Assembly: GCA_963840225.1 (NCBI GenBank) | Contig: CAWIYH010000002.1 | Coordinates: 519,934-583,933, forward strand | DNA from: an uncultured Acidobacteriota bacterium | Lineage (GTDB): Bacteria > Acidobacteriota > Vicinamibacteria > Vicinamibacterales > CAVVIG01 | Length of the DNA stretch: 64,000 nt | Direction: 5' to 3' | Shown here: in pieces, positions 16,265 to 59,699 of the stretch | Numbering within the stretch: position 1 is the stretch's first letter | Layout: each line of letters opens with the position of its first letter | The notes under the pieces: generated by a model | What the model saw: the letters and a program-made list of their open reading frames with translations, nothing else | What the model was told of the DNA's origin: nothing | Database searches by the model: none | Made by a program: the position numbers and the translations under genes

Positions 16265-18927
16265 TCATTCCATCCGGAGCGCCGTCATCGGATCGATTCT
16301 CGCGGCCCGCCGCGCCGGAAAGTAGCTCGCGGCCAGGGCCGTGGCGACCATCACGGCGGCCACGGCGAGATAGGTGAGTGGATCGTCGGCCGAGACGCCG
16401 AACAGCATTCGCGCCAGGCCGCGCGTGGCCGCGGCCGTCGCCGCGAGCCCGATGACGACGCCCGCCGCCGAGAGCCGCAGCGCGTCGCGGGTCACCATGC
16501 TCAGCACGTCGCGACCTTCGGCGCCGAGCGCCATGCGCAGGCCGATCTCGCGCGTCCGCTGGCTGACGGCGTACGACATCACGCCGTAGATGCCGATCGC
16601 GGCCAGTCCGACCGCGAGCGCCCCGAACACGCCGAGCAGGACGGTCGTGAAACGATCGCCGGCCACCGAGTCGGCGACGAGCGTGTCCATCGGCAGGGCG
16701 TCGGCCACGGGAAGGGCCGGGTCGATCGCGCGGATCCGGTCCTTGACGCTGCTCACCACCGACATCGGATCGCCGCGCGTCCTGGCGACGACCACCCCGA
16801 AGTCCATCGGCTGCTGATCGTAGGGAATGTAGATTTCCGGCTCCGTCTCGAGCGCCAGGCCGCGGTGTTTCACGTCGCCGATGACGCCGACCACGTCGCG
16901 GAACCCGTACTTCCCCGTGGCGAACGAGGCATGGACGCGGATGTGCTGTCCGATCGGGTTCTCGTTCGGGAAGTACCGCCGCGCGGCCGTCTCGTTGAGC
17001 ACGGCCACGAGGGGGGCCGCGGCGGTGTCCGCTTGTGTGAACCCGCGGCCGCGCCGCACCGGAATCCGCATCGCGCGCAGGTAGTCGCCGCCGATGACCC
17101 GGACGAAGGCGTTCTGGGCGTCTTCGTCAGCGGGATGGCGCCCCTCGATGCTGAACGTGCTGTGGCCGTTGAATTCCCCCAGCGGCAGCCCGAAGACGAG
17201 GCCGGCCGACTCGATGCCGGCGACGCCATCGAGCGACGGAAGGAGCTGGTGGTAGAACGTGGTGATCTGCTGGGGCGTCGTGTAGGACGCTTCGGGCAGG
17301 AACAGCGAGAACGTCAGCACATGGTCCGCCTGGTAGCCCGTGTCCACGTGCTGGAGGTTGTAGAGGCTCCGCATGAGCAGGCCGGCCGAGACGACCAGCA
17401 TGAGCGCCAGCGCCATCTCGGCGACGACGAGCGATGCGCGCAGGCGCCGCTGGCCGCCGCCGACCTGCCGCCCGCCGTCGCGCAGCGCCCGACTGATGTC
17501 GCCACGCGCCAGCTGCAGGGCCGGGGCGACGCCGAACACGAGTGCAGCCCCCAGGGCGACGACGGCAGCGAACGCGAACACTCGGGGCGTCAGCGCGACG
17601 TCGTGCGCGCGGGGAAGGGCGGCCGGATGCAGCGCGAGAAGGCCGTGGACGCTCCCGATGCCCAGGAGGAGGCCCGCCGCTCCCCCGCCGGCGCCGAGCA
17701 GGAGGCTCTCGGTCAGGAACTGACGCAGCAGGCGGCCGCGGCTGGCGCCCATCGAGGCGCGAATGGCCACCTCGGTCCGGCGTCCGGCGCCGCGGACCAG
17801 GAACAGGTTGGCGACGTTCGCGCACGCGATCAGCAGCACGAGTACCGACCGCGGCCTGCAGCACGATCAGCGCAGACCGCACGCCCTCGACCACGGTGTC
17901 GAGCAGCGGAACGAGCCGCGCGCGGTACTTCCCGTCCTTCTCCGGATGCGCGGCCGCCAGCGCGGTCGCGATGCTCGCGACTTCCGCGTTCGCCGCCGCG
18001 ATCGTCGCGCCGGCTTTCACGCGACCGATGGCCTGGATCCATCGCGCGCCGCGCTGGCTCTCCTCGAGCTGATGCGGCGTGAACACGAGCGGCAGCCACA
18101 GCTGGCTGCGAGCGGGAAATTCGAAGCCGGGCGGCATGACGCCCGTGACGACGTACGGGGTGCCGTCCAGCGTGACGGTGCGGCCGACGATGGAGGGGTC
18201 CGACCCGAACGCCCGCTGCCACAACCCGTGCCCGAGTACCTGCGTACTTGTCGTCAGCGGGGCCGGAGACCATGAACGGACGGCCGATGGCCGGCCGTAC
18301 CCCCATCACGTCGAAGAAATCGGACGTCACCACCTCGCCCGTCAGCCGCTCCGGCTCGCCGGTTCCCGTCAGCGCCACGTCCGCACGCGTAAACGCCGCG
18401 GCGTGCGCGAGCCTTGTCGACTGGCGCTCGTAGTCGGTGAAATCGAGCGGCGACAGCGACCATGACCGGCCGGACGGCGCGATGGTCTGGAGCTCGACGA
18501 TCCGGTCGGCTCCGGGATAGGGCAGGGGGCGGAGGAGGACGCCGTTGACGACGGTGAAGACGGCGGTGGTGGCGCCGATGCCGAGCGCGAGGGTGAGGAT
18601 GGCGACGGCGGCGAAGCCGGGCTGGCGGCGGAGCAGGCGGCCGGCGTAGCGGAGGTCCTGCCAGAAGGTGCCCACGGGCTCTCTCCTTTCGAACGACAGG
18701 GAATCGGGGTCGGCGAGGCGCCGGGCGGCGCTGGCGGCGCGCGCCAGGTCGCCGAGCTCCCGGACGAGGAGAGCGGCGAGCGCGCACCGGCCACGGGCGG
18801 CGGCATCGCGGCACAGCGCGTCGAAAGTGGCACGCATCTCGGCGCCCCAGCGCCGCCGGAACGCGCGCGGGGAGAGACAGAGCGCGGCCCGATAGATTGC
18901 GCCGGCCAGCGCTTCGACGCGCGGCAT
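16265..18927 (-). pseudogene. ADOP-family permease split over three frames by two apparent 1-nt insertions
   Basis: The N-terminal part is in track ORF 17830-19008 (MPRVEALAGAIY...GRPFMVSGPADDKYA). The middle part is in ORF 17127-18224 (LWQRAFGSDPSIVGRTVTLDG...VRSALIVLQAAV). The C-terminal part is in ORF 16265-17839 (LLIACANVANLFLVRGAG...). The breaks lie at about 18239 and 17845. 2663 nt minus 2 nt = 887 codons, one codon fewer than its neighbour (888 including the stop). Confidence 0.9.
18518..18870. repeat. 353-bp repeat, copy B (5' region of the frameshifted ADOP gene)
   Basis: See copy A. The two copies are direct repeats 2666 bp apart. Confidence 0.9.
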
Positions 18928-18955
18928 CCAGCTCACGTGCGTGCGCTCCTGGCGG

Positions 18956-19324
18956 TCATCGCGCCGTGGCCGGGCGGCGGACCACCTGGATGCCCTTCTC
19001 GCGCGCATGGCGGACCAGTGCGTCGAGGCGGGCGGTTTCGGCTTCGAGCACCGCGCGGCCGAGGGACGTCAGCCGGTAGTAGCGCCGCCGCTCGTCGTCC
19101 TTGTCGTCGCGGGCCGGCCGGCGCGGGCTCTCGGCAATGAGCCCGAGCGCGAGGAGGCGCGCCACGGCGGTATAGAGCGTGCCTGTCCCGAGCCGGACCG
19201 CGCCGCCGGTCCGGCCGGCGATGTCGAGGATGAGGCCGTAGCCGTGCCGGTCGCCGTCGGTGAGGGCGAGCAGGATGTGAAACTGCTGCGGCGTGAGCGG
19301 GAGGTAGCGTCGCGGGTCGTCCAT
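18956..19324 (-). CDS. PadR-family transcriptional regulator
   Basis: MDDPRRYLPLTPQQFHILLALTDGDRHGYGLILDIAGRTGGAVRLGTGTLYTAVARLLALGLI...RRRYYRLTSLGRAVL is a full PadR winged helix. ATG 19324 is preferred over the TTG at 19345 used by the track. Confidence 0.88.
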   Translation of the reverse strand: MDDPRRYLPLTPQQFHILLALTDGDRHGYGLILDIAGRTGGAVRLGTGTLYTAVARLLALGLIAESPRRPARDDKDDERRRYYRLTSLGRAVLEAETARLDALVRHAREKGIQVVRRPATAR

Positions 19325-26879: not shown

Positions 26880-29533
26880 TCAATTCGACGTCTTGGTGCC
26901 GGTGCCGTCGCGCGCCGACAGATAGAGCGCGTTGAACAGCATCGGGAACGTCGCGTGCGTCTGCGCCCGGTGCTGCGGCCGGAGACCGAACAGCACGACC
27001 CGGCCGGGGTGCATGTCGACCGAGACCACCGCGGCGCGGCCCGTCATGTACTCCTCGCCCTTCAGCCAGCCCGACGCGACGACGTCGGCGTTCGGATACC
27101 GGGCCACGACCGTCGTCGTCTGCGACGCGAAGCCCTCGCTCAGACTGAAGAAGGGGCTGTTGATGTAGAACCCGTAGGTCTCGGGCGACATGCCGTACCC
27201 GATAGGGTTCGCGGTGTCCACCTCCACCTTGAGGATCGCGCCGGGCGCGAAGTGCTGGTCGCGCGTCAGCCCCTTCTTGAGATCCCTGACCGGGATCGGC
27301 AGCTTCTCGATGGCGAGGTCGCACGCGTTACCCAGCGCGATCAGCGTTCCGCCGTCGGCGACGAAGGCCTTCAGCTGTTCCAGGCCCTCGTCGCCGATGC
27401 CGCCGCGGTATCGGGGCGGATCGCGGGCGCGTCGAAGCCGTTCAGGATGTCGCGGGGACTCTGATCGGCGAGGATGATCGCGTCGAAGCGCTGGCGGAGC
27501 TTGCCCGCCTTGATGTCGGCGTTGTGAATCGGCGTGTTGGCGAAGCCGTACTGCTCGAGGACCCAGCGCGTCCACCCTTCGTCCATGTTGCCGCCGGTCC
27601 ACGGCTGGTACATCCCGATCCGCGGCGCATGAAATGCGATGGCGCCGAGGCTGGAGGCTGGAGGCTGGGGACTGGGACTGGACGTCACGTGGAGGCCGTA
27701 GTCCTTCGCGACCTGCTCCAGCTTCCCGGCGGCGACGTTCGTCGCCAGGACGTGCGACGGCGCGTCGAACGCGAGGTGGGCGCCGTCCTTGAGGAGCCGG
27801 TTCATCGCCGCCGCGGTGTCGGGCCCCTTGTACTCGAATCCGAACCGCGAGCCGCCGCCTTTGACCTCGCCCGGGAGCCCCGGCAGATCGGTGACGGCGG
27901 TCATCTTCAGCCCGCCCGGCAGCGGCTTGTGGACGAACACGCTGTCGACGCCGAGGAGCATGCCGAGCGACCAGGCCGTCACGTCGTACGGCGGCTCGGG
28001 CGGCTCGTTCGGGGCGCGTCGCACCTCGGGGTACGTCTGCTTCTCGAGCATGTCCTTCGCGTATCGCGCGAACACCTGGTTCATCGGGATGACGAACGTC
28101 CCGGCGTCGTACGACTGGCCGTCGGCTTCGAAGGGCGCGTCGGCGCGATACACGTCGACGCCGCCCAGGTGCAGCCGGTCCACGAGGTGCGCCGCCTCGC
28201 GCGGGTCGTGCTGGCCGGCGAGCGGAACGAGGATCGCCGAGGGGTTGCTGGTCCTGCCGTTTTCGACGGTGAGCCGGTTCACGTCGTAGATCTGGCGGTT
28301 GATGGTCTCGCGCTCGTCGGCCACGGTCCGGAGCAGGGCCATGGTCGCGATCATCTCGTAGTCCACGATGTCGTGGAGCGTCCAGTGGCCGCCCATCCAC
28401 GGCCGCGGATACTCCGTCCGGGAGTTGATGTCGGTCGGCGGTGGCAGCGGCTTGTTGTCGAAGGTCCGGAAGCCGCCCCGCCCTCCCCCCTCCTGACGCG
28501 GCGGCGTCCGGCCCGGTACGGCCATCTCCTGATCGATCGGCGCCGCGACGCGAACGCTCGCGACCTCGGTGAGGAGCCCCACCTCGTTGTGCCACCACCC
28601 GCTCCACGCCATCGCGCCTTCCCAGAAGTTCGTGTAGGTGGAGTTGTAGATGATGCCGCTCTTGCCGGCCGCTTCGAGCGCCGCCGCCTGCGACTGGCCG
28701 AGGATGCCGTTCCACCGGTAGATCACCGGATGGACGTTCATGTTGATCGGGTCGGTGGCCGGCATCGTGAAAATGCGCGGGCCGTTGCTGCCCATCTGAT
28801 GCTCGTCGAGCCACACGGTCGGGAACCAGTCGTGCCACAGCAGCTGCGCCGTGTACTGGCTCTCCTTCTGCGTGAACATGTACATGTCGCGATTGTTGTC
28901 GTGGCCGACGTAGGGGTGATAGAGGAACGGGATCGGGCTCGGCTCGTAGGGGGTGCCGACGTTCTTGTTGAACCAGTCGGTCACCATGATCTGTCCGTCC
29001 GGATTCAGGCTCGGCACGAGGAGGAAGATCACGTTGTCGAGGATCTTCTTCACGTCGGGCGAGTCATCGGTCGCCAGCCGGTGCACGAGCTCGACCGACA
29101 TCTGCGACGCCCCGATCTCGGTCGCGTGGATGCTGCAGGTGATGAGGAGCACCAGCTTGCCCTGCCTGAAGATCTCGTCGCGCTCGGCGTCGGTCGGCGC
29201 GCCGCCCTGGAAGTAAAGCTTCCGCTCCATCGCCTTGTACTTGTCGAGGTTCTTCAGGGTGTCGGCCGAGCTGATCTCGAGGACGATGAACGGATTGCCG
29301 TTCGAGGTCTTGCCCAGCTCCCGGTAGCGCACGCGGTCGGAGTCGACGGCCGCCAGCTTCATGTACTCGACGATCTTGTCCCAGCGAAGCAGCTTGTTGT
29401 CCGCGCCAATGGGGAATCCGGCGAACTGTTGCGGGGCGGGCAGCGTGGCGGCCGCGGTGAGGCGATTCGAGCCCGTGAGGCCGGCGCTCAGGGCGACGGC
29501 CACGACGAGCGTCAGCAGGCGGCGTGTGATCAT
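26880..29533 (-). pseudogene. M14-family zinc carboxypeptidase with C-terminal GATase1-like domain; one apparent missing base near 27411-27425
   Basis: The N-terminal part is in track ORF 27371-29581, from MITRRLLTLVVAVALSAG, with zinc motif CSIHATEIG. The C-terminal part is in ORF 26880-28838 (PPRYRGGIGDEGLEQLKAFVADGGTLIALGNACD...). 2654 nt plus 1 nt = 885 codons. Confidence 0.85.
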
Positions 29534-29634: not shown

Positions 29635-30811
29635 ATGCCCCAGTCCCTGAGATATCAGAGCCGGATGGACGCCGTCCAGGCGCCGATCGTCCCGGTCATC
29701 GGCCAGATCATCCGCCAGGTTCCGGACACCATCTCGCTCGGACAGGGCGCGGTGCACTACGGCCCGCCGCGCGAGGCCATCGAGGCGGCGCGGCAGGCGC
29801 TCGGCGACCCGGCCACGCACGAGTACCAGCCGGGCGACGGGCTGCCGGCGCTCGTCGCGCGGCTCGAGCGCAAGCTCGCCCGGGAAAACGGCATCGACGT
29901 CGCCCGCGGCAGCCGCGTGATGGTGACGGCCGGGGCGAACATGGCGTTCGTGCACGCCGTGCTCGCCGTCACCGAGCCCGGCGACGAGGTCATCCTGCCG
30001 GTCCCGTTCTATTTCAACCACGAGATGGCGATCGAGATGGCCGGTTGCCGGGCGGTGCGCGTCCCGACCGACGAGCGGTACCAGCTCCGGCTCGATGCCC
30101 TCGCCACCGCCGTCACGGACCGCACCCGTGCCATCGTCACGGTGTCGCCGAACAATCCGAGCGGTGCGGTGTTCACCGAAGCCTCGCTGCGCGCCGTCAA
30201 CACGCTCTGCCGCGAGCGCGGCCTGTATCACCTCGCCGACGAGGTGTACCAGGTACTTCACCTACGGCCGGGCGACGCACGTGTCGCCGGGGTCGTTTCC
30301 CGACGCCGCCGAGCACACGATCTCGATGTATTCGCTGTCGAAGGCGTACGGCTTCGCCGGATGGCGCATCGGGTACATGGCGTATCCCGCGCATCTCGAG
30401 GCGGCGATGTCGAAGGCGCAGGACACCATTCTGGTCTGTCCGACGGTCATCTCGCAGATTGCCGCCGCGGCGGCGCTCGACGCCGGCCGGGCGTACGCGG
30501 CGCCGTACGTGACCGAGCTCGCTTTGATCCACGACGATGTCGTCGCCCGCCTGGCGGATCTCGCGCCGCTGGCGACGGTGCCCGCCGCCGAGGGCGCGTT
30601 CTACGTGCTGCTGAGGGTCCACACCGGCCTCGATCCGATGCGGCTGGCCGAGCGTCTGATCCGCGAGCACAAGGTCGCCGTGATGCCCGGTCCCGCCTTC
30701 GGCATGACCGACGGATGCTACTTCCGCGTCGCGTACGGCTCCCTCAGGAAGGACACGGTGGCCGAAGGCGTCGGACGGCTCGTCGGCGGCCTCCGCGCGA
30801 TTCTCGGCTGA
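29635..30811 (+). pseudogene. Class I/II PLP-dependent aminotransferase; apparent 1-nt insertion at about 30253
   Basis: The N-terminal part is in ORF 29575-32028 (...VTVSPNNPSGAVF...LADEVYQ). The C-terminal part is in ORF 30095-30811 (YFTYG...ISMYSLSKAYGFAGWRIGY, containing the PLP lysine). 1177 nt minus 1 nt = 392 codons. Confidence 0.88.
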
Positions 30812-54974: not shown

Positions 54975-57144
54975 CTAACCCCTCGCGCTCGATCGAGAGG
55001 ACCCGGGCAGCCCCTTCGGCACCATGGGCATCGATCGGATTCGGACGCCGGTCGCATGGAAGATGGCGTTGCCGATGGCCGGCGCGACGCCCACAATCGG
55101 CGTCTCGCCGGCGCCGGCCGGCCGGATGTCGCGCCGGTCCACCAGCACCACCTCGATGTCCGGGAGGTCGCTGAATCGCGGCACCCGGTAGCTCTCGAAG
55201 CGTCCGTTGGTCAGACGTCCCTCGTCGAAGTCGATGGCTTCGAACAACGCGCCGCCCAGCCCCTGGACGACGGACCCGGACACCTGGTTGTTCAGGCCGT
55301 CGGGGTTGACGATGGCTCCGCATTCGAAGGCGACGACGATGCGGCGGACCTTCACGCGCCCCTCCGGGCGATCCACCTGGACCTCGGCGCAGAGCGCCGT
55401 GTAGCCGCCCTTCTCGACCCCGCAGGCGAGGCCGCGGCCCCGCACCACGTCGTCGGCTGCGGCGGGCTGCGGCCATCCGAAACGCCGCGCCGCCGCCTCG
55501 AGCACGGCGGCAAGACGTTCGTCCTTCAGGTTCTTCAATCGGAACGCGAGCGGATCCATCCCGACCGCATGGGCGAGGTCGTCCATGTGCGACTCGCGCG
55601 CGAAGTGATTGGCCGTGGCGGCGAGCCCCCGATACGACCCCTGTCGCAGGGGCGACTGCGCCGGGTGGAACTCGACGTGCTGGTTGGGCACCTCGTACGG
55701 CGTCTGGATGCCCGACGGCCCCGAGTTGTAGTTGTGGTGCTCCCAGGCGGTGAGCGTGCCGTCCTTGCGCGCGCCGCCCCGCACCTCGATGACGCCCGCC
55801 GGGCGGAAGTAGGCCCAGGCGAACTCCTCGGCGCGGGACCACACCAGCTTGACCGGACGGTTCGCCGCGCGAGCAAGGCGCGCGGCCTCGACGGCCGCGT
55901 CTCCGGTGTGCTTGCCTCCGTAGGCCGACCCGGTGTCGGGAACCACGACGCGCACGCGATCGGCCGGGAGATGAAACGCCTGCATCAGCTCCTGCTGCAC
56001 ACCGAAGGGACGCTGGGTGCCGGTCCACACGGTCAGCCCGCCGTCATGCCACTCGGCGACCGCGGCGCGCGGCTCGAGCGGCGCATGCGCGATGTAGGCG
56101 ATGGTGTACTCGGCGGACAGCTTCGCGTCGGCGGCGGCGAGCCCTTCGTCCACCGATCCCCTCGTCGTGGGACGGCTTCGTCCCCCGGGCTCCGTGTGGG
56201 TCTTCAGAATCCGCGAACAGGGTGCGTGCGGAAGCGCCGGACCCCGCGGTCCATTCGGCCTTGATGGCGGCGGCCGCGTCATCGGCGCTCGCGGCGGACG
56301 GCGCGGCGACGCCGACGAAGTCGTTGTCGTGGACCACTGTCACGCCGGCCAGTGCCTCGGCGGCGGCCGTATCCAGGCTCTTGAGGCCCGCGCCGTACGC
56401 GGGCGGACGCACGATCCGTGCGTGGAGCATGCCCGGACGCACGACGTCGGCGGCATAGCGGTGGCGTCCCGTGACGAAGGCGCGGCCGTCGACCTTGGGG
56501 GCCGGCGCGCCCGCGATCGTCCAGTCCTTCGGCGCGCGCAGCGCCGTGTCCTCGCTCACCGTCGCCACCAGCGGTGCGCCGGCCATCAGTGCGCCGAACC
56601 CGAGCGATTGTCCCGACGGTCCGTGAATCAATCCGTCCTTGACGGTCACCGACGCGGCGTCGGCCTTCCAGCGCGCCCGCGCCCGCTCGACGAGGACGCC
56701 GCGGGCGGCGGCGGCGACCTTGCGCAGCTGCAGGTTCATGGTCGGGGTCGTGCGGCTGCCGAACGTGCCCATGTCGAAGGGCGTCGCGGCGGTGTCGGCC
56801 ATGACGAGGGTGATGGCCGCAACCGGCGCGCCGAGCTCCTCGGCCACGGCCTGGGTCAGCGACGTGCGGATGTTCTGGCCGATCTCGGTCTTGCCGGTGA
56901 ACACGGTCACCTGGCCGTCCTCGGCGACGTGCAGCCAGGCGTTGACGGCGGCTGGCATCCTGTCGCCGGCGAACGCCGCCCGACCTGATTCCTGCGCGCC
57001 CGCGAGTCGGGGCGAGACGAGCAGCACGACGAGGCCGGTGCCGAACGTCTTCAGGAAGTCGCGCCGATCGAACGCGAAATGGTACCGCGCGTCGGCGAAC
57101 AGCTCGTACCGCTCGAGCTCGATGACCTCGACCGCATCACGCAC
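54975..57144 (-). pseudogene. Molybdopterin-binding large subunit of an IorB/aldehyde-oxidase-type dehydrogenase; apparent 1-nt insertion at about 56211
   Basis: The N-terminal part is in ORF 56044-57264, from GTG 57144, with Tat motif FDRRDFLKTFG. The C-terminal part is in ORF 54975-56282 (...AEYTIAYIAHAPLEP...GGKHTG...). 2170 nt minus 1 nt = 723 codons. Confidence 0.85.
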
Positions 57145-57758: not shown

Positions 57759-58370
57759 TCACTTGCTGCTCCCGTAGTCCCTGCCGCCGTAGTCCTGGTC
57801 GACGGCGCCCGGCACGGTGACGGCCGGGGCGCTGGTCCGATCGGGAATCCGGTGGTGCACCGGCTTGAGGTGACGGAGGTACACGACGACGGCCCGCAGG
57901 TCCTCTTCGGTCCAGTTCGAGAAGTTCGCCCACGGCATCACGGTATGCGACGTCACGTGGCCGTCGGGGAACAGCCCGCTGCGCAGCACGCGCACGATTT
58001 CGGCGTCGGTCCGACCGCCGATGCCGGTTTCGCGATCCGGCGTCAGGTTGCGGCTGACGAAGGTGCCGTGCCGGGTCTGGATCTTGAGTCCGCCGGCGAG
58101 ATACCGGCTCCAGTCCGGCCCCTGCGGTCCGGGCGTCCCGTGGCAGCCGATGCAGCCGGTGGTCATGACGAGATATCGGCCCCGCTCGGCCAGCGCGCGT
58201 TCGACCGGGTCCGTGATGTCGTTGACGCCCGGCGTGTTCGGCGCGACGTCCTTGGAGAACGCCTCGGGCGGCGCGATGAAGAAGGGCGGAATGAAATAGA
58301 GGAACGCCAGGAAGGCCAGGATCGCCAGCGAGGAAAGCACCACGGCCGTCCGCTTGACGATCGTGCTCAT
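57759..58370 (-). CDS. Membrane-anchored monoheme c-type cytochrome
   Basis: ATG 58370 overlaps the stop of the upstream cytochrome gene (ATGA). TM segment VVLSSLAILAFLAFLYFI. Single CIGCH motif. Confidence 0.8.
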   Translation of the reverse strand: MSTIVKRTAVVLSSLAILAFLAFLYFIPPFFIAPPEAFSKDVAPNTPGVNDITDPVERALAERGRYLVMTTGCIGCHGTPGPQGPDWSRYLAGGLKIQTRHGTFVSRNLTPDRETGIGGRTDAEIVRVLRSGLFPDGHVTSHTVMPWANFSNWTEEDLRAVVVYLRHLKPVHHRIPDRTSAPAVTVPGAVDQDYGGRDYGSSK

Positions 58371-59699
58371 CGCTGAGCTTCCTTCCGGGTCGTCCCGGCA
58401 TTGCCCGGAAAGAAGACGATAGGCGGGTCCTCTTTGAGCATGAGCATCTTGAACTTGCCCCACAGGTAGAGCGGCAGGATGGCGCGCCGGGGCCTGGGCA
58501 CCTTGTTGTAGACGGGCGGCACGGTGCGAAGATACGCGACGATCGCGTCGAGATCCTCCGGGCGCAGCGTCGAGTACCGACGGCCAGTCCATCGGGTACG
58601 GCAGCATCCGGGTGCCGTCAGGCAGGGTGCCGGTCGTGAGGACGCGCTTGATCTGGTCGTCGGTCCAGTTGCCGAGGCCCGTTTCCTTGTCGGAGGTCAG
58701 GTTCCCGGTCGGATAGTCGCCGAATGGCTCGAGCCGCAGGCGAAGACCGCCCGCCATCAGCATTCCCGGGAGAATCCGCTTTTGCTCGTCGGCGGGCGAG
58801 TGGCACAGCGCGCAGGCCATTCCGTTGACGAGATAGCGTCCGCGCCGGACCGGGTCCTTCTTCGCCTCGGCCGCCTGCCGCGCATACAGTCCCTTGATCT
58901 CGTCGGCGTTCATCTGCCAGGCGGGCTTCCGCGCGAGCGAGAGGACGTAGTTGGCGAGGTCCCACATCTCGCCGTCGCTCGCCGAATCGGTAAACGACGG
59001 CATCGGCGTGCCGGACATCCCGGTCCGGAAGCGCAGGTACACCTCGCGCGTGGACGCGCCGCCGTGGAACATCCAGGGCTCGGTGAGATCCGCGGCGTTC
59101 AAGGGCTGGCCCCAGTCGTCCTCGAACTCGGTCGCAATCGCGTCGGTGCCGTGGCCGTCGGTGCCGTGGCAGCCCGAACACTGCAGCTTGTCGTACACCA
59201 GGCGTCCGCGGGCGATGCTCTCCGGCGATTCCAGCACCTCGGGACCGAGCGTCACAGGCTGGGGCGGCGTCTGAAACTTCGGCGACAGCGTCTTGAGATA
59301 ACTGACGACGGCCGCGATGTCGTCATCCGAAAGGACGCCCTGCCATCCCGGCATCGCCAATCCGTACAGCCCCTCGCGGACCGATCGAATCAGGTCGTCG
59401 TCGGTCGGCACGCTGCCGGTGTCGGTCGAGCGGATCTTGTACTTGCCGCTGGTGAAGTCGAGCGGCCGCGGCGTCATGAGCAGCGCCGCCGGCCCGTCGC
59501 CGCGACCCGTGTCGCCGTGGCATTCGACGCATTTGGCTTCGTAGACGACCTTGCCGCGCGCGACGAGGATCCCGTCCGGCGCCGGAGCCGCCGGAGGTTG
59601 CGCGTCCAGTCCGCGTCCCCGCACGGCCAGCGCCACACCGCCCGCCAGCAGGACCGCGAGCGCGATGGTGCGGCCGGGCCGCGACAACAGCCAGTTCAT
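58367..59699 (-). pseudogene. Triheme c-type cytochrome (dehydrogenase cytochrome c subunit-like); apparent 1-nt insertion at about 58577
   Basis: CVECH, CSGCH and CALCH lie in the 57759-59699 frame up to ...LPYPMDWPS. The continuation YSTLRPEDLDAIVAYLRTVPPVYNKVPRPRRAILPLYLWGKFKMLMLKEDPPIVFFPGNAGTTRKEAQR-stop is in the frame offset by one base. 1333 nt minus 1 nt = 444 codons. Confidence 0.82.

Follow-up and report, generated by a model that had tools for sequence, protein, structure and literature searches.

Probable one-base consensus insertions at an AGTACC/GGTACT word in the assembled genome of an uncultured Acidobacteriota bacterium

Errors in the length of homopolymer runs are characteristic of long-read and flow-based sequencing, and genuine shifts of the reading frame occur in programmed +1 ribosomal frameshifting, for example, in prfB, where a fixed mRNA motif and phase operate in one conserved gene. 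The assembled genome analyzed here presents a pattern that partly resembles each of these. As with homopolymer errors, the length of a run is off by one base, and the outcome is isolated frameshifts in intact genes; unlike homopolymer errors, the run in this case goes from one base to two, and a specific flanking word is required. As in programmed +1 frameshifting, the protein continues in the new frame after the shift; unlike prfB, approximately 100 unrelated genes are involved, either orientation and every phase is represented, and the orthologues do not share the shift.

Nanopore sequencing presents further parallels. Consensus errors in nanopore assemblies concentrate in methylation motifs, such as the Dcm motif CCWGG (Wick, Judd & Holt 2019, PMC6591954), modification-mediated errors, which arise from unfamiliar modifications, are bound in Listeria to the short motifs GCAGC and GCTGG (Chiou et al. 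2023, PMC10687267), and strand-specific mismatches are found at modified sites (PMC11610603). The modification-linked nanopore errors described in these papers are mainly substitutions, with indels stated not to be the source in two of them (PMC10687267, PMC11610603), and run-length errors of long-read sequencing are described as well (PMC6591954, PMC10687267). Like the Dcm errors (PMC6591954), the pattern reported here involves one short word genome-wide, survives into the consensus, is independent of the gene in which it occurs, and dominates the residual error; unlike those, it consists in a one-base insertion that results in a frameshift. Like the Listeria errors (PMC10687267) and the mismatches at modified sites (PMC11610603), it is motif-bound, confined to a particular lineage or assembly, and correctable by homologues, a comparison that was performed here by hand for four sites; it differs from the mismatch excess described in both papers in that the signal is an insertion. 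A limited literature search recovered no report of insertions at GTAC, and the string GTAC is absent from PMC11610603.

Frame breaks in the 64-kb window

The genome (G000) consists of 5.99 Mb in 8 contigs, with 69% G+C, and resembles a metagenome bin, with the completeness estimated at 97.28% and the contamination at 0.33%. The window, that is, the whole stretch of 64,000 nucleotides that was analyzed, corresponds to G000:C2:519934-583933. An earlier note on this stretch had described four +1 breaks that share GGTACT, and its coordinates and sequences all turned out to be as written when rechecked: CGAGTACC is found at 18233-18240 and CGAGTACCGAC at 17839-17849, the + strand reads AGTACC at 58573-58578 and GGTACT at 30252-30257, and the coding strand carries GGTACT in each of the four cases (Table 1). 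Three-frame translation reveals one surplus base, that is, a +1 change of frame, at each of the four sites, and agrees with the family-typical peptides that the note had quoted across the junctions. The surplus base lies ahead of GTA-CTC in two of the sites and ahead of TAC in the other two, so that the codon phase differs among the four. The count of about nine break points given in the note could not be reproduced: apart from these four, there are two further real breaks, and whatever else was flagged corresponds to the ends of genes.

Table 1. Broken genes and frame breaks in the window, in positions of the 64-kb stretch
Feature	Position	Strand
ADOP-type (MacB_PCD/FtsX) permease gene, in three frames, otherwise intact; start approximate	16265..19008	-
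ADOP break 1, +1; AGTACC on the + strand, GGTACT in the coding strand, one surplus G/C	18235..18240	-
ADOP break 2, +1; same word as break 1 (CGAGTACCGAC on the + strand)	17841..17846	-
Class I/II aminotransferase gene (~29635-30811), +1 break	30252..30257	+
Multihaem cytochrome c gene (at least 58367-59399), +1 break	58573..58578	-
Molybdopterin-binding oxidoreductase gene, second +1 context GATTCTG (CAGAATC on the + strand)	56205..56211	-
-1 break at a CCCC run, ordinary homopolymer case	27413-27416	

The ADOP permease gene, upstream of which lies a PadR-like gene, changes from frame 2 to frame 0 at ~18240 and from frame 0 to frame 1 at ~17846 in three-frame translation. Pfam matches to MacB_PCD cover profile positions 2-112 and 124-206 on the two sides of the former break; at the latter, MacB_PCD is located upstream and FtsX begins, from profile position 6, immediately downstream. 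By the same translation, the aminotransferase passes from frame 0 to frame 1 at 30252, with Aminotran_1_2 matched at 2-189 and 207-361 across the break, and the cytochrome c passes from frame 1 to frame 2 at 58578.

A comparison with relatives could be made for four sites, namely, those in the aminotransferase and cytochrome c genes and two in rpoB, and at each of them the relatives keep the frame. In the cytochrome c gene, the same-genus assembly G001 has GGCCGTC-GTACTCGAC, which is shorter than the window by exactly one G, and the extra base is absent in three more distant relatives as well. At the aminotransferase site, all seven relatives read TACGAGTACTTC as against TACCAGGTACTTC in the window, which is one base longer and also shows a G to C difference (GAG in the relatives versus CAGG in the window); judging from the alignment, this difference would represent either a true E-to-Q change plus an insertion or a compound error. 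For the ADOP permease, the search of five relatives for an orthologue yielded paralogue fragments only (the best with 73-75% identity over ~200-270 bases), so the two ADOP sites are left without a base-by-base comparison. The four genes of the window that appear broken are almost certainly intact.

Distribution, orientation and codon phase of the word

For the genome as a whole, frame switches were sought with a codon log-odds table trained on 1751 long ORFs of G000 with high GC3. Every position on both strands received a score from the 50 codons that precede it in a given frame and the 50 codons that follow it, read in that frame or in the +1 or -1 frame; the +1 signature is defined by an old frame that scores well before the point and badly after it, together with a new (+1) frame that scores badly before the point and well after it, and any candidate whose old frame meets a stop within 12 nt was set aside. 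This scheme replaced a seven-state Viterbi path over the codon scores, which had produced 2354 same-strand frame switches, mostly gene boundaries within operons. Clustering yielded 669 +1 candidates, of which 374 have no old-frame stop within 12 nt. The detector does give false positives, one of the 60 sites that were scanned against Pfam resembling a boundary between two genes (GHMP kinase and PolX).

All four reported sites of the window carry the +1 signature. The hexamer occurs 21 times in the window, counting both strands, and the remaining 17 copies lack the signature, among them those at 2021 and 37361, in the PadR and S9 peptidase genes, respectively, where the earlier note had likewise found GGTACT to be in frame. 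This exceeds chance: given the genome-wide baseline of 0.53% of sites, the probability of at least 4 flagged copies among 21 is 4.4e-6.

The genome-wide enrichment test that the note had proposed came out strongly positive. AGTACC is present within 20 nt of 39 of the 374 candidates and GGTACT within 20 nt of 30, each against an expectation of 1.9. In a site-centred scan that took in all 6-mers, 7-mers and 8-mers, GGTACT/AGTACC ranks first, with 83 of its 1739 copies flagged (4.8%, versus the baseline of 0.53%; p ~9e-50). Sharper contexts include AGTACCGA (20 of 88 copies flagged), AGTACCTG (25 of 257) and CAGTACC (43 of 550); for GTACC altogether, 144 of the 7866 copies are flagged versus 41.7 expected, an excess of some 100 breaks. 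Flagged GTACC sites are present on all 8 contigs and are proportionally fewer on C7 (2 of 157). The 74 motif-bearing candidates represent 73 distinct loci, one having been detected on both strands; AGTACC is preceded by C or G in 65 of the 74 and followed by G or T in 63. When the flagged copies of the two 7-mers are set against the words that would be read there without the surplus base, namely, 20 copies of AGTACCGA against 488 of unbroken AGTACGA and 25 copies of AGTACCTG against 218 of unbroken AGTACTG, the counts suggest that ~4% and ~10% of the candidate sites, respectively, are affected.

The orientation of the word relative to the gene is mixed. Of the 83 flagged sites, 43 have AGTACC and 40 have GGTACT in the coding strand; among the 29 split genes that were verified with Pfam, the corresponding numbers are 11 and 18; the 74 candidates split 41 to 33, and unbroken AGTAC[GT] in genes 1848 to 1291. 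The commonest codon phase accounts for 36 of the 41 and 24 of the 33 candidates, but the minority phases occur too, so that all three are seen; the unbroken word has the same skew (1806 of 1848 and 1174 of 1291), which arises from the TAC codon. With both orientations and all phases represented, the event belongs to the DNA sequence as written rather than to its expression: it is a DNA-level event and not an mRNA signal.

These observations bear directly on the idea that the genome truly contains the extra bases and that expression gets around them, either by programmed +1 frameshifting at GGUACU or by removal of a base at the level of the transcript. The family-typical protein does resume right after each site, as it would at a programmed frameshift site, but a message signal needs the coding strand and a fixed phase, whereas the breaks found here are almost evenly divided between the two orientations and extend over the three phases; both orientations even occur within rpoB itself. 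Furthermore, the reading frame runs undisturbed through 1656 of the 1739 copies, and orthologues in the relatives do not have the shift at the positions compared. Bypass of either kind is thus exceedingly improbable, orientation and phase together leaving practically no room for a recoding signal. A minimal probability attaches also to a variant in which the extra bases are real and the frame is restored by a process that recognizes the GTAC core, a palindrome, whichever way the gene runs; one nucleotide could, for instance, be removed or skipped at the site as the gene is transcribed, and if such a process existed, about 100 genes, rpoB among them, would depend on it.

Split genes, rpoB and cysS, and other assemblies

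Of the 74 motif-bearing candidates, the 60 with the highest scores were scanned against Pfam, with the unaltered upstream and downstream pieces searched separately. For 29 of these, both sides of the break match one family or the domains of a single known architecture; a family is recognized on one side only in 23 and on neither side in 7, and the last one is the apparent two-gene boundary. The profile coordinates are often contiguous, as in cysS (tRNA-synt_1e, 3-44 and 46-300), PEP-utilizers_C (10-209 and 210-291), ActD (1-69 and 70-169), HXXSHH (7-111 and 112-305), ACR_tran (458-853 and 858-1019) and MacB_PCD (1-117 and 121-206). There is no decay past the breaks, where the Pfam profiles continue and the codon signal is intact.

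Two of the broken genes are essential. The rpoB gene is divided into three frames by two sites, at C1:667186 and C1:665303, with the motif in opposite orientations, and cysS has one break; tblastn with a piece of each gene recovers a single locus in the genome. A cell with these lesions in rpoB and cysS is not viable. At rpoB site A, G001, G003 and G012 read GAGTA-CTCG, and G004 and G006 have a variant with T; the extra base is present in none of the five relatives aligned at this site and in none of the four aligned at site B.

The codon model trained on G000 was also applied to two other assemblies. In 773 kb of G001, an assembly from the same genus that is fragmented into 150 contigs, the signature was found at 0 of 200 copies of AGTACC, 0 of 42 copies of GTACCGA and 0 of 88 copies of CAGAATC; at the rate observed in G000, the probability of 0 of 200 for AGTACC is 5.7e-5. 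In 800 kb of G012, which represents another genus of the family and consists of 4 contigs, AGTACC is the top-ranked 6-mer (13 of 220, against a baseline of 1.5%), and GTACCGA and CAGAATC are flagged at 5 of 42 and 6 of 70 copies, respectively. Being absent from the fragmented assembly and present in the contiguous one, the pattern tracks the kind of assembly and not the lineage, from which we infer a cause linked to assembly; the high contiguity is a hint of a long-read origin.

It is against this background that a genuine mutational origin has to be weighed, that is, a hotspot, for instance, a lesion or slip at GTAC, that would have acted at about 100 sites and turned the genes into true pseudogenes. 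The extra base does stand in the assembled sequence, and the involvement of one word irrespective of gene orientation is what would be expected of a mutational process at the DNA level as well. However, the single-copy rpoB would be broken twice and cysS once in a cell that could not live, the downstream parts of the genes have not decayed by either the Pfam or the codon criterion, only one type of lesion is seen, with no comparable motif among the -1 candidates, and the same words are flagged in a contiguous assembly from another genus while the fragmented assembly from the same genus has none. In the light of rpoB, cysS and the comparison of assemblies, a real hotspot is very unlikely. The resemblance of the genome to a metagenome bin also brings to mind the co-assembly of two strains, with the extra base contributed by a minority haplotype. 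Strain variation, though, would not be limited to one inserted base at one hexamer, rpoB would not be broken in either strain, and the estimated contamination is low; we consider such a mixture highly improbable.

The putative error, its trigger and other frame errors

The surplus bases are, then, very probably errors of the assembled consensus that are absent from the DNA of the organism. A context-specific consensus or base-calling artefact was the explanation that the earlier note had placed first, and it has gained support from the genome-wide enrichment, the indifference to orientation and phase, the condition of rpoB and cysS, and the contrast between assemblies. The error would consist in a single C falsely added after AGTAC, which on the opposite strand corresponds to a G ahead of GTACT. 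Most of these additions would fall where C or G precedes the word and the base that truly follows it is G or T; a run of one base would become a run of two, and the affected gene would be shifted by +1. The local DNA word alone, and not the coding strand or the codon position, would decide whether the error arises, and a minority of the candidate sites would carry it into the consensus. The cause presumably lies in the read chemistry, the base-caller or the polisher of a long-read pipeline.

What triggers the error is a separate matter, and the verdict of an artefact is independent of it. We regard base modification at GTAC (and GATC) and miscalling of the words themselves as about equally probable, and the recurrence of the same two words in another genus (G012) would be compatible both with GTAC/GATC modification being widespread and with a base-caller or polisher that is simply biased toward certain words. 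Genes of DNA methyltransferase families are present in the genome, namely, two of PF01555 (over the cut-off), one of PF02086 and one of PF00145. The solved structure considered as a candidate GTAC methylase turned out to be M.RsrI, and the best solved relatives, M.RsrI and others, are uninformative with regard to GTAC specificity. Should base modification be the trigger, the error pattern would hint indirectly that this uncultured lineage from soil modifies its DNA at GTAC (and GATC).

The consequences are practical. About 100 genes that are in all likelihood intact, including rpoB, cysS, lpxK, transporters and the four of the window, would enter an annotation as split ORFs or pseudogenes. A rule for targeted correction can be formulated, namely, to look for a surplus C after [C/G]AGTAC and before G or T and, in addition, for the CAGAATC context. 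More generally, the pattern cautions against taking frameshifts for biology in similar contiguous assemblies of this family.

The CAGAATC context is the second to be associated with +1 breaks. In the window, it occurs in the oxidoreductase gene listed in Table 1, where MoCoBD_2 is matched upstream and MoCoBD_1 downstream of the break; genome-wide, 15 of its 603 copies are flagged (p 1.3e-6). An insertion inside a GANTC site was considered as a reading of this context. However, one of the genes broken at this word encodes a kinase with an HxDLKPxN loop, and here both the frame and the catalytic Asp of the loop are kept only if a T of GATTC is surplus. As read from this gene, the evidence points to GATCTG as the true word at the CAGAATC context, although a single kinase example is not proof.

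The 354 -1 candidates show no motif comparable to the GTAC word; instead, Shine-Dalgarno-like words (GGAGG and similar) are enriched among them, which implies that these candidates are mostly gene starts. Runs of at least four G or C are no commoner at the +1 sites than in the background (13.9% versus 14.3%) and are only weakly enriched at the -1 candidates (18.6% versus 14.3%); it follows that the assembly is generally clean and that word-specific insertions are its main frameshift error.

Variants of the GTAC context

The surplus-base context GGTACT/AGTACC is overrepresented in the whole window (21 copies observed against 5.5 expected from dinucleotide shuffles), and the majority of these copies are in frame. 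This excess probably stems from codon usage, because in-frame AGTAC[GT] falls in the NAG-TAC phase in 1806 of 1848 cases. At the aminotransferase break, the forward strand at window 30241-30257 contains a pair of GTAC words with 7-base spacing, GTGTACCAGGTACTT; given that relatives read GTnTACGAGTACTT here, this stretch may combine a substitution with the insertion or carry a true Glu-to-Gln change. Outside the window, near position ~151028 of the same contig (C2 of G000, the genome under study), a minus-strand +1 break falls on GCGTACCGACC, the GTACCGA variant of the GTAC context, and is the only flagged +1 switch (in the codon-score scan) within ~2 kb.

Other probable indel errors

The break in the molybdopterin-binding oxidoreductase gene falls within another error context that recurs, CAGAATC; this word is flagged at 15 of 603 sites genome-wide in G000, at 6 of 70 in G012, a 4-contig relative from another genus, and at 0 of 88 in the same-genus assembly G001. 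In one kinase gene, GATCTG appears to be the true word, with the surplus T/A lying within GATC. The -1 break at the CCCC run, on neither side of which the gene has a Pfam match, looks like an ordinary homopolymer undercall. Judging from the alignment, the G012 assembly likewise has indel errors in essential genes: its rpoB (L127, contig C4) has its own one-base insertion (TGCGGAC versus AGC-GAC in five other genomes), ~35 bases upstream of site A, a broken rpoB position in G000.

Candidate methyltransferases and a neighboring gene

The end of a PadR-like regulator gene (window ~18957-19099, minus strand) lies directly upstream of the ADOP permease gene. Should the errors be triggered by base modification, four DNA methyltransferase-family genes of G000, a pair of N6_N4_Mtase genes plus a D12-class and a C5 gene, become candidates.

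Frame breaks and methyltransferase-family genes in G000
Feature	Location	Strand	Word
+1 break, molybdopterin-binding oxidoreductase gene	window 56205-56211	-	GATTCTG
-1 frame break	window 27413-27416	-	CCCC
DNA methyltransferase-family gene	C2:1415191-1415865		
DNA methyltransferase-family gene	C4:1010197-1010922		
DNA methyltransferase-family gene	C3:215007-215765		
DNA methyltransferase-family gene	C2:416524-417561
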